Shown piece by piece: positions 2,845-15,305 of a stretch of DNA of 15,483 nucleotides. Position 1 is the stretch's first letter. Each line of letters opens with the position of its first letter. Under the pieces are notes generated by a model. The model saw nothing but the letters and a program-made list of their open reading frames with translations, did no database searches and was not told the origin of the DNA. This DNA comes from Acidobacteriota bacterium. GTDB lineage: Bacteria > Acidobacteriota > UBA6911 > JACQSX01. The stretch covers positions 1 to 15,483 of the forward strand of contig DASXQR010000006.1 of the NCBI GenBank assembly GCA_036507075.1, given 5' to 3'. Made by a program: the position numbers and the translations under genes.

Positions 2845-5031
2845 ATGCTTAGATCGATAAGGACGGCCATTATTGTCTGCATTGCCCTTCTGCTTGCATC
2901 ACCCGCCGCCAGCGCAGCTCTGCCCGCAGATGGTGAAAGGCCGGTGATGCGTGCGCTGCGCGCCAGCGGTCCGATCGTCATCGATGGTGATTTGAATGAA
3001 CCGGACTGGCAGCGGGTCGAACCAGCTTCCGGCTTCATCCAGAAGATTCCGCGCACCGGGGATCCGGCCACCGAACAAACCGAAGTCAGGATCCTTTACG
3101 ACGACAACAATCTCTATCTGGGAGTCTACTGCCTGGATTCGGCCGGCTCGCGCGGGATCGTCGTCAACGACATTTCGAAAGATTTCTTCACTCTGGACAG
3201 CGACGGATTCCAGGTGGTGCTGGATACTTTCCACGACAAACGGAATTGTTTTCTCTTCGGAACCAATCCGAAGGGAGGAAAGTTTGACATGCAGATCGGG
3301 GCCGACGGCGCCGCCGGTAATACAGACTGGGACGGCATCTGGTACGTAAAGACCCGTGTTGACGAGCGCGGCTGGCAGATCGAAATGGCCATCCCGTTCA
3401 AGACACTCCGCTTTCATGAGGCCGAAGAGCAGATCTGGGGCATCAATTTTGAAAGGCGGGTGCGGCGTAAGTTCGAGGATTCATACTGGGCGGCGCTTCA
3501 GCCCCCGTATCGCGTGAGCCGCGTATCGCTTGCCGGCACGCTGCAGGGCCTCCGTGGCATAAAGCAGCCCCGCAACCTCTATGTGAAACCTTATCTGTCG
3601 GCGCCGCTGGGCCGCAAGGAAAATGACGATGTGGATTTCAATCCTGACGCCGGGTTGGACCTGAAATACGGCGTCAGTTCGCAGATGACATTCGATGCCA
3701 CTCTGAACACCGATTTTTCTCAGGTCGAGGCCGATGACGCGCAGATAAACCTGACGCGCTTCAGCCTGTTCTTTCCTGAAAAACGCGACTTCTTCCTGGA
3801 AAACGCCGGAACATTCATCTGGGGAAGGCCGAAGCGACGCCCCATGTTTGGACCGGATCGCAGCCGGCGGCTCGACCTGATTCCATTTTTCAGCCGCCGC
3901 ATCGGGCTGACCGACGATGGAGAGCTGGTCCCCATCCGCGGCGGGGCGCGGCTGACCGGGCGCGCCGGTCCGTACAACCTTGGACTGCTTTCCATGCAGA
4001 CCGGCAGGTTCGAATCGCTGCCGGAAACGAATTTCTCCGTCGTGCGGCTGCGCCGGGATCTCTCCCGGTATTCGGACGCAGGCGGAATCTTCATCAATAA
4101 ATATGAAGACGGCGGCCGATTCAATCGCACCTATGGGGCGGACACGAATCTTCGCTTCTTCCAGTATCTCGACGTCACTTCTTATCTGCTGAAGACGGAT
4201 TCGCCCGGCAAGCACGGGCGCGATCAGGCCGGGGACCTTGAAGTTTCATGGCGTGACAGCCTTTTTGATGTGCGGGCGGGACATCTCTGGATCGGGGAAA
4301 ACTTCAATCCGGAAGTGGGATTTGCTCCACGGCGCGGCATTCGCAAGACTTCCGGAGAATTCAACCTCACGCCGCGCCCCGGAGAGCGAATGGCGGCGGT
4401 GCGGGAATTTCAACCGACTGTGGAATTTGACTACATCACCGATCCGGAGGGGCGCCTGGAGACCCGGCGCCTGGAAACGCGTTTTGGCGTGCTGTTCTCC
4501 AACAGCAGCTTTGTGCTGTTCGGGCGCGAGGCAAACTTCGAGCGGCTGGATGAGCCTTTTGCAATCCGCAAGAACCAGAAAATACCGGTGGGCGATTACC
4601 GGTTTGATCAGTACTCGGCCTATTACCAGAGCGACAGAAGCCGCATTCTAAGCGCCATATTGACCGTTTCCACTGGAGGATTTTATGACGGTGACCGCGA
4701 TTCTTTGGGCGGCACTCTGGTGGTGCAGCCGGACTATCATTTTCTGGCCCGCTTTTCGTGGAATCACGACGACGTGCGGCTGCCGACTGGAAATTTCAAA
4801 ACGAATCTCCTATCGAGCCGGCTGAATTACTCGTTTACAACGAACCTGTTTCTCAGCGCCCTGATCCAGTACAACAGCGACGATCACGCCGTCACCAGCA
4901 ACATTCGCCTCAATTTTATTTACAGGCCGCTGAGTAATTTCTTTCTCGTTTATAACGAACGCCGCAGCAGCACCGGCATAGTCACCGAACGCGCGCTGAT
5001 TGCAAAGCTGACGCGGATTTTTGCATTTTGA
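2845..5031 (+). CDS. DUF5916-type protein with N-terminal CBM9-like domain; probable outer-membrane beta-barrel
   Basis: ATG 2845 with GAGAGG SD; signal peptide; IDGDLNEPDW and EMAIPFKTLRF (CBM9-like); NTDFSQVEAD and LFFPEKRDFFLE (DUF5916-like); alternating beta-strand pattern and C-terminal Phe. Confidence 0.85.
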   Translation: MLRSIRTAIIVCIALLLASPAASAALPADGERPVMRALRASGPIVIDGDLNEPDWQRVEPASGFIQKIPRTGDPATEQTEVRILYDDNNLYLGVYCLDSAGSRGIVVNDISKDFFTLDSDGFQVVLDTFHDKRNCFLFGTNPKGGKFDMQIGADGAAGNTDWDGIWYVKTRVDERGWQIEMAIPFKTLRFHEAEEQIWGINFERRVRRKFEDSYWAALQPPYRVSRVSLAGTLQGLRGIKQPRNLYVKPYLSAPLGRKENDDVDFNPDAGLDLKYGVSSQMTFDATLNTDFSQVEADDAQINLTRFSLFFPEKRDFFLENAGTFIWGRPKRRPMFGPDRSRRLDLIPFFSRRIGLTDDGELVPIRGGARLTGRAGPYNLGLLSMQTGRFESLPETNFSVVRLRRDLSRYSDAGGIFINKYEDGGRFNRTYGADTNLRFFQYLDVTSYLLKTDSPGKHGRDQAGDLEVSWRDSLFDVRAGHLWIGENFNPEVGFAPRRGIRKTSGEFNLTPRPGERMAAVREFQPTVEFDYITDPEGRLETRRLETRFGVLFSNSSFVLFGREANFERLDEPFAIRKNQKIPVGDYRFDQYSAYYQSDRSRILSAILTVSTGGFYDGDRDSLGGTLVVQPDYHFLARFSWNHDDVRLPTGNFKTNLLSSRLNYSFTTNLFLSALIQYNSDDHAVTSNIRLNFIYRPLSNFFLVYNERRSSTGIVTERALIAKLTRIFAF

Positions 5032-5096
5032 ATCTCACCACAAAGACACAAAGTGCACAAAGTTCTTCGTGGTCTTTGTGTCTTTGTGGTGAGATT
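5031..5096. repeat. Minimal palindromic element D
   Basis: Perfect 23-bp inverted repeat AATCTCACCACAAAGACACAAAG (5031-5053) / 5074-5096. Same unit sequence as elements B and F. Confidence 0.93.
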
Positions 5097-5107
5097 GACA
5101 AATTTTA

Positions 5108-10493: not shown

Positions 10494-10623
10494 GGAAAAC
10501 TTCACCCACAAAGACACAAGTGGGGCAGGCAGAGGCCGGTCATCTGTCCAAAGGCGAACGCGGCGGTTTTGAAGCTGACCGGCCTCTGCCTGCCCCATTT
10601 GTGTCTTTGTGGTGAAGTTTTCC
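10494..10623. repeat. Palindromic intergenic element F (same family as B)
   Basis: About 48-bp inverted repeat 10494-10542 / 10576-10623 (one bulge, one G-T) with a 33-nt loop. Has CACAAAGACACAA units and the inner GCAGGCAGAGGCCGGTCA module. Confidence 0.95.
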
Positions 10624-10638
10624 GTGGCTTCTGATTTT

Positions 10639-11706
10639 TCACACCTTCTCTCTTTCCGGAAACTCCCCCGGCATCACAGACAACTCAATTTTTTCCGGCC
10701 CTCGAATCACAACCAGCGGGGTTCTTGCGCCCACACGCTCATCGCTGAGCAGCTTGTGCAAGTCGTCAATACCTGCCACCGGCTGCCCGGCGAAATTCAC
10801 GATGATATCGCCTGCGGTAATGCCCGTCTTTTGAGCGGGGCTGTCCGGTTCAGTTGAGACCACCATGATGCCGCTTTCGCGCGTCAAACCATGAAAGCGC
10901 ACGATCCGGCGGTGAAGGGGCACGTTTTGTCCCGCCATTCCAATGTAGCTGCGGCGGATCTTGCCGTCCTTGATCAGGCGGCCGGCGACGAACTTGGCCG
11001 TGTTGATCGCGATGGCAAAACAGATGCCCTGCGCGGGAAAAATCACAGCCGTGTTGACTCCAATCACCTCGCCCCGGGAATTAACCAGAGGACCGCCCGA
11101 ATTTCCGGGATTCAGCGCCGCATCGGTCTGGATTACGTCGTCAATTAATCGGCCCGAACCGGTCCTGAGCGAGCGGCCCAGCGCGCTGGTCACTCCGGCT
11201 GTCACGCTGCACTGAAAGCTGTACGGGTTGCCGATCGCTATTACAAGCTGGCCCACCCGGATCTTCTGCGAATCTCCCATCAGCGCGGGAGTCAGCGCCG
11301 GTGCGCTTATTCTCACCACCGCCAGATCGGTGTGTGGATCGTCTCCCACCAGGTCTGCCTGCCAGGATCGCCCGTCCGTCAGAGTCACACGGATCCAGGT
11401 TGCGTTATGGACCACATGACTGTTGGTTAGAATAAATCCGTCCGGGGTGAACACGAACCCCGATCCGCTCCCGCCCCGCTCGCGTTGAGACGGTCGCCGG
11501 CTCGTTTCTCCATCCCGGCCTGCCTGCCGGACCTCGATATTGACGACCGAAGGGCTCACCTTTTCAGCGGCCGAAATAACCGCCTGCGAATACGCGTCCA
11601 GAAGATCGTCATCAAATCCCGCCGGTTGCGTCCCCGCATGCTCCGGCCCCGCGTGCAAAGGCTCATTCGCCGCCAACCTCATTTCGGCACTGCTCCTGCG
11701 CTTCAT
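10639..11706 (-). CDS. HtrA/DegP-like S1C serine protease with single PDZ domain
   Basis: GSGSGF, TNSHVV, DLAVVRI and IQTDAALNPGNSGGPL; C-terminal PDZ (SPAQKTGITAGDII). ATG 11706 has an AAAGGTGG SD; the ORF track starts at 11715. Confidence 0.95.
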   Translation of the reverse strand: MKRRSSAEMRLAANEPLHAGPEHAGTQPAGFDDDLLDAYSQAVISAAEKVSPSVVNIEVRQAGRDGETSRRPSQRERGGSGSGFVFTPDGFILTNSHVVHNATWIRVTLTDGRSWQADLVGDDPHTDLAVVRISAPALTPALMGDSQKIRVGQLVIAIGNPYSFQCSVTAGVTSALGRSLRTGSGRLIDDVIQTDAALNPGNSGGPLVNSRGEVIGVNTAVIFPAQGICFAIAINTAKFVAGRLIKDGKIRRSYIGMAGQNVPLHRRIVRFHGLTRESGIMVVSTEPDSPAQKTGITAGDIIVNFAGQPVAGIDDLHKLLSDERVGARTPLVVIRGPEKIELSVMPGEFPEREKV

Positions 11707-11749
11707 TGAATCCACCTTTCAATTCATTGGTTTGCGGAGTTGCAAAGAG

Positions 11750-11983
11750 TCCACCACAGAGACACGGAGGACACAGAAAGACAGCGAGAGATGGCCAAAA
11801 GTTCCCTGTGCCCCCCTGTACTACTAACCATGAGAATTTTCGCGGCCCGCGCAAATTATTCGGGAGCGGAGAGACGGCCTGCGGGCCGTCTCAGCTTGGC
11901 AGAACACCGCAGAGAGACGGCCCTCAGGCCGTCTCTCCTTGACTTTTGGTTGCGGCTTCGCCGCGCTAAGCCTCTGTGGTGGA
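11750..11983. repeat. Palindromic element G, right arm interrupted by an insert
   Basis: TCCACCACAGAG (11750-11761) pairs with CTCTGTGGTGGA (11972-11983). The rest of the right arm (CTGTGCCCCCCTGT, 11806-11819) lies 150 bp further left. Confidence 0.8.
11820..11969. mobile_element. Putative 150-bp non-autonomous insertion with sub-terminal hairpins, carrying a REP-like doublet
   Basis: Removing it restores the right arm of element G. Hairpins at 11835-11857 and 11952-11964; no terminal IR or target duplication visible; internal inverted 25-mers at 11868-11892 / 11914-11938. Confidence 0.6.
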
Positions 11984-12084: not shown

Positions 12085-13818
12085 CTACGGCGGAAAGTTC
12101 ATCTGGCGCAGCAGATCGAGAAAGCGCGGGTGTGAGCGCAGGACGTCAAGCCTTGGGTCTACTCTGGCAAAGGTGAGTCCGGAGGAGCGTTCTTCGTACG
12201 CCTTTGCCAACCACTCGTACGCCTGATCCTTCTCTCCCAGGCCCAGGAAAAGCAGAGCGAAGTCGTACGGCGAGACGTATTTGCTGTTCGACCGGTCCTT
12301 GAGCTGTTTCAATAGCTTCAATACATCGCTCCGCTGCCCCGCCATTCCACAGGCATGTGCAAGTGCCGCCATCGCTCCCACGCCGCGTCCCGCCGGTGAG
12401 ATCCCCTTCTTGAAGGCGGCGATCGCTTTCCCGTAAGCGGCTTTCTGTTCGTATCCCAGTCCCATGAAGTAGTACGCGTGAGCGTAATGCGGGTCGAGCT
12501 CGAGCGTTTTCGCCGCATACTCGATTACCTGTTCGTACTGGCGGGCCAGAAACAAAATCCCGGCCGCGTTCAAGATCACCGAAGGCGCCACGGGGTCAAG
12601 CTCCAGCGCCCGCATCGCCTCAGCGACAGCCTCCTTCGACCGCCCCAGCGCGGCCAGGCAGTTGGCATAATAGTAATGAGCGGTTCCATAACTCGGGTTC
12701 AAGTCAATGGCTCGCTTGAACCCCTTCTCTGCCGCCTCCCAGTTGAATTGATGAAGATTGAGATGTCCCAGCGACGTATGGGCCTCCGCCAGCGTTTCGT
12801 TCAACTGCAACGCTTTGATGGCTGCCGCATTGGCCTGTGCTGCCGCTTCGAGAGGAGGAAGGTAGTTGTAGTCGAGCAGTCGAAGATAACAATCAGCCAG
12901 TCCGGCGTAACTCGCGGCGTACGCCGGGTCGGTTTCTATTGCGTTCTCGAACTGCCCGACGGCCTTTTGGAGCCCTTCCTTTGCTCGCTTGTTCCAGAAG
13001 TAGCGACCTTTGAGATAAGCCTCGTAGGCCTGGGGGTTGACGGGGCGCACATCCGTTATGCACCCACGCTCCGGCGACGTCAGCTTTACCCTGATCTCAC
13101 CGGCTATTGCCTGGGCCACGTCATTCTGTACGGCAAGAATGTCGTCCAGGTTGCGGTCGTAACTCTCGGTCCAGAGGTGAGTCTGATCGCTTACCTGGAT
13201 GAGCTGCGCAGTGATGCGTACCCGCGGGCCGGCGCGCCGCACGCTGCCCTCCAGCACGTAATTGACGCCCAGTTCCCGGCCGATCTGGTCAATGCCCTTG
13301 GCCGTGTGTTTGTATTTCATCGCTGAAGTTCGAGCAATGATCCCCAGCCGCTCGCGATGCAAACGCCCCAGGTGCGTAATCATTTCCTCGGTCAGACCGT
13401 CGCTGAAGTATTCCTGGTCGGGATCGCTGCTCAAGTTCTCAAAAGGGAGCACGGCCAGCATCATCCTGCCCGCGGCGGAAGGCGGCTGTATTGTCGGGGT
13501 TTCTTTGACCGGAGCGACAAACCGATAGCCGCGCTTTGGAATTGTCAGGATGTATTCCTGCCCCTCGACGCCGTCACCCAGAGCCTTCCTCAGGATGGAA
13601 ATCGTGCGGGCAAGACTTCCTTCTTCGACGAATGCATCGGGCCAGACCTTCTTCAGGAGTTCGTTCTTTTCGACCAACCGGCCGGCGTTCTGCACCAGCA
13701 CCAGCAGGGTATCGACAACCTTCGGAGGGAGCATCACGATCTCGCCCTCGCGCAACAGCAAACGCCCGGCGATGTCCAGGCGAAATCGACCAAACTGATA
13801 GAACTGTCCGCTGGCCAT
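12085..13818 (-). CDS. Winged helix-turn-helix (OmpR/CadC-type) transcriptional regulator with TolB-like domain and TPR repeats
   Basis: N-terminal FGRFRLD, VWPDAFVEEGSL..ISILRKALGD, TIPKRGYRF; AVLPFENLSSDPDQEYFSDGLTEE; LEGSVRR; multiple TPRs; C-terminal DPRLDVLRSHPRF. Confidence 0.92.
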   Translation of the reverse strand: MASGQFYQFGRFRLDIAGRLLLREGEIVMLPPKVVDTLLVLVQNAGRLVEKNELLKKVWPDAFVEEGSLARTISILRKALGDGVEGQEYILTIPKRGYRFVAPVKETPTIQPPSAAGRMMLAVLPFENLSSDPDQEYFSDGLTEEMITHLGRLHRERLGIIARTSAMKYKHTAKGIDQIGRELGVNYVLEGSVRRAGPRVRITAQLIQVSDQTHLWTESYDRNLDDILAVQNDVAQAIAGEIRVKLTSPERGCITDVRPVNPQAYEAYLKGRYFWNKRAKEGLQKAVGQFENAIETDPAYAASYAGLADCYLRLLDYNYLPPLEAAAQANAAAIKALQLNETLAEAHTSLGHLNLHQFNWEAAEKGFKRAIDLNPSYGTAHYYYANCLAALGRSKEAVAEAMRALELDPVAPSVILNAAGILFLARQYEQVIEYAAKTLELDPHYAHAYYFMGLGYEQKAAYGKAIAAFKKGISPAGRGVGAMAALAHACGMAGQRSDVLKLLKQLKDRSNSKYVSPYDFALLFLGLGEKDQAYEWLAKAYEERSSGLTFARVDPRLDVLRSHPRFLDLLRQMNFPP

Positions 13819-13919
13819 CAAAGTAGTTTGGGAAGGAATTCGTCAGAAGAATATCAACTTTCGCGAAGGACTTCTACGAGCTGTGGTCCCTAATATTTGC
13901 CGGAAGGAGGAAATCCAAC

Positions 13920-15224: not shown

Positions 15225-15283
15225 ACAGTGATAAGGGGCATGAGTTACCAGTTGTTTAGCCGCATCGATTCAGCGGAGACACG

Positions 15284-15305
15284 GCGCGGCTGGGCCGTAA
15301 CCAAA
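15284..15305 (+). mobile_element. Second copy of the hairpin terminus GCGCGGC-NNN-GCCGYAACCAAA
   Basis: 18/22 identical to the reverse complement of 11945-11966. Differences are the 3-nt loop and one stem C>T. Confidence 0.6.

Follow-up and report, generated by a model that had tools for sequence, protein, structure and literature searches.

The transposases of elements that move as single strands or rolling circles are HUH enzymes only, in the accessible portions of two reviews (PMC5714925, PMC10288648). IS91, as described in an excerpt of PMC13181058, carries a terminator hairpin end upstream of its gene and an origin end beside a target tetranucleotide, makes no target duplication and has a functional bottom-strand circle. 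Short gene-less derivatives of IS200/IS605 elements, called PATEs, have near-terminal palindromes and lack terminal repeats and duplications (PMC3119063, in extract). Fixed-place insertion at short palindromic repeats is known from ISGme8 and ISGme9, which lie at a fixed distance in or next to the paired octamer repeats of Geobacter metallireducens, and from the IS110-family element ISPpu9 in REPs (PMC2700814, in extract; PMC12288879). Here we describe an insert whose family acts like IS91 and looks like a PATE, but whose enzyme is not of the kind that defines IS91, IS200/IS605 or IS110. What may be novel is the class of enzyme, not the nested repeat itself. A literature search of mainly open-access papers found no description of the family; an unclassified ISfinder entry may exist.

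The window (the whole 15,483-nt stretch analysed) is contig C6 of a 6.1-Mb assembly of 233 contigs that is 95.7% complete and whose three best-matching sequencing runs are soil metagenomes. The insert region sits between two minus-strand genes, encoding an HtrA-like protease (10639-11715) and a winged-helix/TPR protein (12085-13821). An initial annotation had read this region as a three-level nest of palindrome, 150-bp insert and REP doublet, and placed all three correctly (Table 1), although the doublet did not arise independently at this site. With the insert taken out, 23 of 27 positions of the right arm match the complement of the left arm, an additional base being present (by-eye count), as had been claimed. 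The proposed boundaries also hold, but the uncertainty of ±2 nt attached to them does not: both ends recur genome-wide at identical bases. The hairpins noted near both ends are present.

Table 1. Parts of the nested repeat, in window coordinates
Feature	Position	Strand	Remark
Left arm, host tandem-unit palindrome	11750..11776	+	Family also elsewhere in window
Host right arm, first part, ending in target tetranucleotide CTGT (11816-11819)	11806..11819	+	
150-bp non-autonomous element	11820..11969	+	
Left terminal motif ACTACTAAC	11820..11828	+	45/55 protein-selected loci; shuffled control 0
Imperfect inverted repeat, candidate enzyme-binding site or hairpin	11835..11857	+	Register shared with full-length elements
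REP doublet (REPIN-like), arms 11868-11892 and 11914-11938	11862..11938		Fixed cargo from free REP family
Right end: TGGTT, GC-rich hairpin 11952-11964, terminal CTAA 11966-11969	11947..11969	+	50/56 protein-selected loci; control 0
Host right arm, remainder; first base is the G of target CTGT^G	11970..11983	+	G after 39/42 right ends

A 246-nt region around the insert folds with z = -7.05 on the + strand and -8.56 on the - strand, and none of 200 shuffles folds as well. The only structured RNA families matched in the insert region are miRNA-type hairpins, at scores far under the gathering thresholds. A 131-aa ORF spanning the insert has no Pfam match, no sigma-70-like promoter was found in the region, and its one terminator-like site is within chance expectation. 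Among 32 ends, the left inverted repeat has C-G at pair 24:30 in 16 and T-A in 14; at pair 19:35 the insert has T-A, where 25 of the 32 ends have C-G. The sequences are related to one another, which limits the weight of these exchanges.

Copies of the insert and their target sites

BLAST with the two insert ends gave 42 left-end and 56 right-end matches genome-wide. A stricter count retains 35 left ends and 42 right ends, which come together in 27 complete copies of 107 to 203 nt. Seventeen are 150 nt long. These seventeen share 92-99.3% identity, no two are the same, and past 14 nt their flanks are unrelated (median identity ~25%). With no identical pair among them, the subfamily may now be inactive.

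The junctions of these copies follow a rule. CTGT stands before 25 of the 35 left ends and TTGT before four; CTAA provides the final four bases of 36 of the 42 right ends, and G is the base that follows 39 of them. Target duplication of 3 nt or more is absent from all 27 complete copies, and the tetranucleotide in the left flank differs from the terminal tetranucleotide in every one, so the latter is element-encoded. We therefore rejected both target duplication and a shared core at insertion. The absence of duplications, and of terminal inverted repeats in ends that are dissimilar, agrees with the initial annotation.

The target lies in a host repeat. A repeat-arm-like right flank accompanies 26 of the 27 copies. 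The background rate, taken over YTGTG sites that do not fall in long ORFs, is 476 of 5,235 (binomial p = 2e-26); loss of copies from harmful sites through selection could contribute to the enrichment. All 26 are at one point of the repeat arm, which bears out the view of the insert as a non-autonomous mini-element that targets tandem-unit repeats. Could the right flank instead be carried by the element? This was rejected: the variable position +5 tracks the partner arm in 15 of 16 copies (the partner arm being recognisable by eye in 16 of the 27), as it does in 115 of 118 intact palindromes, and the right flank is therefore host DNA. A mismatch at +2 is unremarkable because 68 of the 118 intact arms have one, and C is preferred at +2 after CTAA ends (20 of 26 vs 158 of 347, p = 0.002).

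Other end types occur in the same genome. A loose right-end hairpin pattern has 165 matches, some of them chance matches, with endings that are mostly TGT (68), TAA (38) or TGC (18). A second left-end type, also borne by the full-length element L294, has 78 pattern matches genome-wide at the same target. Eight left ends directly abut the right end of another element, an expected arrangement because a CTGT terminus followed by G would recreate the target. The right hairpin is absent within 700 nt at four of 36 scorable ACTAC-type left ends, which decay could explain. The contigs of four assembled runs showed no circle joints, empty alleles or autonomous continuations, no RNA dataset was among the matching runs listed, and end-to-end pairing across a circle junction is present in some members and not conserved.

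Three further sites deserve mention. One, on the minus strand at G000:C3:34576, is related to the insert but lacks the REP doublet; its CTAA right end is shortened and leads straight into a second-type element. On the minus strand of the window, 15277-15303 is a hairpin module of the family's right end that terminates in CCGT, with a degenerate repeat arm after it. The left-end motif occurs without a preceding CTGT at 399-407, also on the minus strand, adjoining the palindrome at 210-386.

Full-length relatives and their ~520-aa protein

The two ends of the insert also bound ~1.7-kb elements in other bacteria, each with one gene for a protein of ~520 aa. The longer copies, with a putative transposase, that the initial annotation suggested looking for thus exist, but elsewhere: neither the enzyme gene nor a fragment of it was found in the insert's own assembly by protein search, local tblastn, HMM or alignment. 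Scanning species genomes with the target plus the left end gave 50 loci, five of which have a ~520-aa ORF on the opposite strand that ends near the left end (two are interrupted). When 80 metagenome loci were picked by protein alone, 45 of the 55 that could be scored had the left-end motif past the stop codon, and 50 of 56 had the right hairpin ahead of the start; shuffled controls gave zero for both. Scored on profiles of the protein-selected loci, the insert's ends reach 24.8 and 29.6, whereas 6 Mb of random sequence yields no more than 7.8 and 16.4. The insert almost certainly belongs to this family of full-length elements.

In full-length elements the left-end motif sits ~40 nt beyond the stop codon of the enzyme and the right end ~100 nt upstream of its start, pointing to an ori-like left end and a ter-like right end. 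The transferred strand of the 150-bp element would then be the + strand, opposite to the enzyme gene in its full-length relatives.

We collected 47 complete full-length elements at 42 distinct sites, most of them 1,709-1,721 nt long. The next base is G at all 42 sites, and the left tetranucleotide equals the terminal one at 33 and differs at nine. The terminus is CTGT in most relatives, CTAA in the insert and CCAA in one full-length element; the exact CTAA-type right end matched this genome alone among 301. Among elements that share 68% identity or more with L173, itself chosen by a repeat-containing pattern, seven of 16 have repeat-like flanks; none of 22 more distant ones does, which makes repeat targeting lineage-specific. 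The enzyme gene is present in 22 of the 301 genomes of the phylum and the enzyme in two of six genomes of the order, one of them full-length; the right end was found in none of the 80 viral-contig loci listed.

One full-length relative spread recently. In genome G094, five full-length copies align with no mismatches (gaps, 0-15 nt) and lie at five separate sites; they end in CCGT and occupy CCGT^G targets within a tandem repeat of another kind. On its contigs C3 and C2 (L324-L328, L351-L353) these mismatch-free autonomous copies occur together with short derivatives. Genome G272 (L302, L318, L356, L357) has a distant family member, 24% identical to L173, in four copies that share the upstream end and differ in their flanks; they lack a GCGGC hairpin and, in the alignment, have F where the motif tyrosine would stand. 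On a Paraburkholderia plasmid, L293 (NZ_CP014580.1, 252808-254322) is a member annotated as an ArsR-family regulator, with a similar hairpin upstream. In two full-length elements, L141 and L158, a further transposase-like ORF has inserted on the upstream side of the enzyme gene.

The protein family is large. Clustering at 90% gives at least 7,400 relatives and clustering at 50% identity 6,786 clusters, and no Pfam or NCBIfam family scored above cut-off in the 3 + 32 proteins scanned. Databases annotate it as hypothetical or as a transcription regulator, and a cluster atlas entered through the homologue P0037 returned hypothetical-protein clusters alone; these elements have probably been missed in annotation because their enzyme bears such labels. 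A PDB sequence search gave just weak winged-helix matches.

Structure prediction gave confident models (pLDDT 92.5 and 95.1). The best match of the predicted N-terminal 399 residues in structure comparison is TBP (Z 8.2), followed by the Rep_trans proteins RepSTK1 (4cij; Z 7.3, rmsd 4.8, 194 aligned) and RepDE (4cwc; Z 7.0, rmsd 4.8, 181 aligned) and then an unrelated structure at Z 6.8 over 94 residues; according to the tool, a Z below 8 can reflect a common arrangement, and TBP outscores the Rep_trans chains. Foldseek on the PDB produced no clear match and ranked Rep_trans chains low (E 0.015-0.04), and a viral structure library yielded weak TBP and inovirus Rep matches. The C-terminal tail is predicted to be a MarR-type winged helix.

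We consider the residue pattern, as read from the alignment, a stronger argument for Rep_trans likeness than the fold scores. E247, Y327, R339 and E341 are conserved in 103 of 103 sequences, D251 in 102, D20 in 100 (three gaps) and K329 in 95. D20, E247-x-A-x-D251, Y327-x-K329 and R339-x-E341 match Rep_trans motifs N', I, III and IV in order and, in the predicted model, in strand placement, as these motifs are given in the consulted parts of PMC5714925, PMC4797284 and PMC6499999. Y327 falls on the fourth strand of the second modelled lobe; the catalytic tyrosine of RelSt3 is placed on strand 9 of 10 in an excerpt of PMC6499999. F replaces the motif tyrosine in two distant members of the alignment.

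The likeness has limits. The protein shares with Rep_trans (PF02486) and MOBT enzymes (RepSTK1 4CIJ, RepDE 4CWC, RelSt3) a predicted TBP-like sheet, at moderate scores, and the ordered Asp, acidic-x-Ala-x-Asp, Tyr-x-Lys and Arg-x-Glu, whereas it differs in having Glu for the motif I Asp, other spacing and no Pfam or profile match. The PF02486 profile matched none of 35 family proteins and was not found in the insert's own genome, and hhalign against a 99-sequence Rep_trans alignment gave a probability of 0.7% (0.3% against RepC alone), which is not significant. Archaeal Rep-Arvir (RepSNJ2), in which a TBP-like domain is joined to a MarR-like winged helix, is unrecognisable by sequence, in the part of PMC13107129 consulted; it is a precedent for a link that sequence does not reveal. 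The HUH motif is absent, conserved His being found solely at 270, 317 and 484. Nickase chemistry is likely, and the models predict a Rep_trans-like tyrosine nickase with a winged-helix tail. The known Rep_trans and MOBT enzymes replicate plasmids or viruses or start conjugation, whereas here the protein is the sole ORF of a 1.7-kb multicopy chromosomal element.

Proposed transposition mechanism and its alternatives

We propose that the insert, itself without a gene, belongs to an unnamed IS family and probably moves single-stranded, in the style of IS91, by means of a Rep_trans-like ~520-aa nickase acting in trans. The enzyme would nick the donor after CTGT, Tyr327 binding the 5' A of the left end and Asp20, Glu247 and Glu341 holding the metal. 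The strand would be displaced as far as the right hairpin and cut after the terminal tetranucleotide, CTAA here and CTGT in most relatives. The displaced strand, possibly circular, would be joined into a new CTGT^G, preferably in a repeat arm, and replication would fix the new copy. The REP doublet is a passenger, and the host palindrome serves as the landing site and lies outside the element.

We favour rolling-circle-type transposition because the layout of the ends mirrors that of IS91, the + strand of the window corresponding to its bottom strand. As in the IS91/ISCR group (IS91, IS801, IS1294), there are no terminal inverted repeats and no duplications (0/27), and the target tetranucleotide is by the gene-downstream end, the hairpin and cleavage tetranucleotide at the gene-upstream end. 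Target and terminal tetranucleotides are related and not always equal, as in the excerpted account of PMC13181058. By contrast, the IS91/ISCR transposases are HUH enzymes, whereas here there is no HUH motif, a predicted TBP-like fold and a candidate tyrosine on a strand; and the target is CTGT^G or CCGT^G, inside tandem-unit repeats in some lineages.

We are less sure of rolling circle over peel-and-paste. The same family and enzyme could excise from single-stranded DNA in the manner of IS200/IS605, a reading that we consider unlikely. The structured motifs at both ends and the lack of duplication would suit it, and one-ended events are not clearly seen, the four left ends of 36 without a hairpin being perhaps decayed. 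On the other hand, the predicted fold and motif order suggest a replication initiator. IS200/IS605 elements use a guide tetranucleotide at the foot of a hairpin that pairs with the cleavage site. Read by eye, the ends showed no such guide covarying with the target tetranucleotide between CTGT- and CCGT-targeting members, and no consistent covariation of end sequence with either the CTGT/CCGT target or the CTGT/CTAA terminus. The five identical copies in G094 fit copying, yet are compatible with peel-and-paste.

A different doubt concerns the enzyme. It could be a site-specific recombinase or another nuclease of TBP-like fold unrelated to Rep_trans, with another chemistry such as crossover at a short core, which we hold to be improbable. 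TBP tops Rep_trans in the fold search and no profile matches; the flank and terminal tetranucleotides are equal at 33 of the 42 full-length sites; and a second invariant tyrosine, Y143, is left unexplained. However, a shared core is not needed, given that all 27 CTAA-ended copies in CTGT or TTGT sites are unmatched, and four catalytic-type residues stand in Rep_trans order.

The Y1/HUH or IS110 origin raised by the initial annotation, taken here as a PATE-like derivative that IS200/IS605 TnpA, a RAYT or an IS110 recombinase would move, is very improbable and largely refuted: the genome has 12 Y1_Tnp matches, the insert contains a REP doublet and PATEs share its form (PMC3119063, in extract), but its ends belong to single-ORF elements whose gene is neither Y1 TnpA nor TnpB, with no HUH motif and no second gene, the 12 Y1 loci are flanked by other repeats and lack these ends (flanks read), and the DEDD recombinase domain Transposase_20 was matched neither in the genome nor in the ~520-aa protein, and none was linked to these ends.

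Returning to the nickase, we lean modestly towards a broader reading: a large unannotated IS family with a TBP-fold, non-HUH tyrosine nickase and rolling-circle-type transposition may represent a new class of transposase, some of its lineages specialised on tandem-unit palindromes, with more than 100 hairpin-ended mini-elements per genome building mosaic intergenic repeats. If true, a Rep_trans-like transposase would mean a separate origin of transposition, from another class of rolling-circle initiators. The insert family accounts for one layer of this genome's mosaic intergenic repeats. The family lends itself to direct tests, since it has a single gene, a pair of short ends and a target of 5 bases, and G094 provides an example that was active recently. 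Its seamless, oriented and duplication-free insertion may serve as a tool.

Inner REP doublet and neighbouring repeats

The REP unit inside the insert is common in this genome, with 153 clusters, 91 of them without element ends nearby. Each unit is a short GC-rich hairpin whose 5' tag resembles GTAG or GGAG; units occur as singlets and inverted doublets, and the 5' context of free copies agrees with 11862-11867 of the window. All 17 full-length (150-nt) copies hold the doublet at the identical position, so the third level of nesting did not arise independently here. Most likely the doublet was captured once from the free REP family and then travelled as passenger cargo; shorter and longer copies of the insert look like the loss or gain of a REP unit. 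In its tagged, abundant short palindromes and doublet form it resembles REP/REPIN-RAYT systems. No cognate RAYT flanked by this REP on both sides was found among the 42 Y1 loci covered (12 own and 30 of 52 listed in five relatives); four had one unit nearby. The motif TTCGCAGATTT is common to most RAYT-like genes in G000, ~30-90 nt ahead of the start.

The window contains more palindromes of the host repeat family, at 1395-1577, 5026-5101 and 10506-10612; the arms of the one at 5026-5101 are uninterrupted, representing the empty state. A perfect 40-bp inverted repeat with a 31-nt spacer (239-349) lies within the tandem-unit arms 210-239 and 357-386, and a palindrome at 2584-2825, with arms of tandem 8-mers, belongs to a different repeat family. 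In G000, six PF13366 (GxxExxY-type) and nine PF05635 (four-helix bundle) matches are candidates for a link to the tandem-unit repeats.
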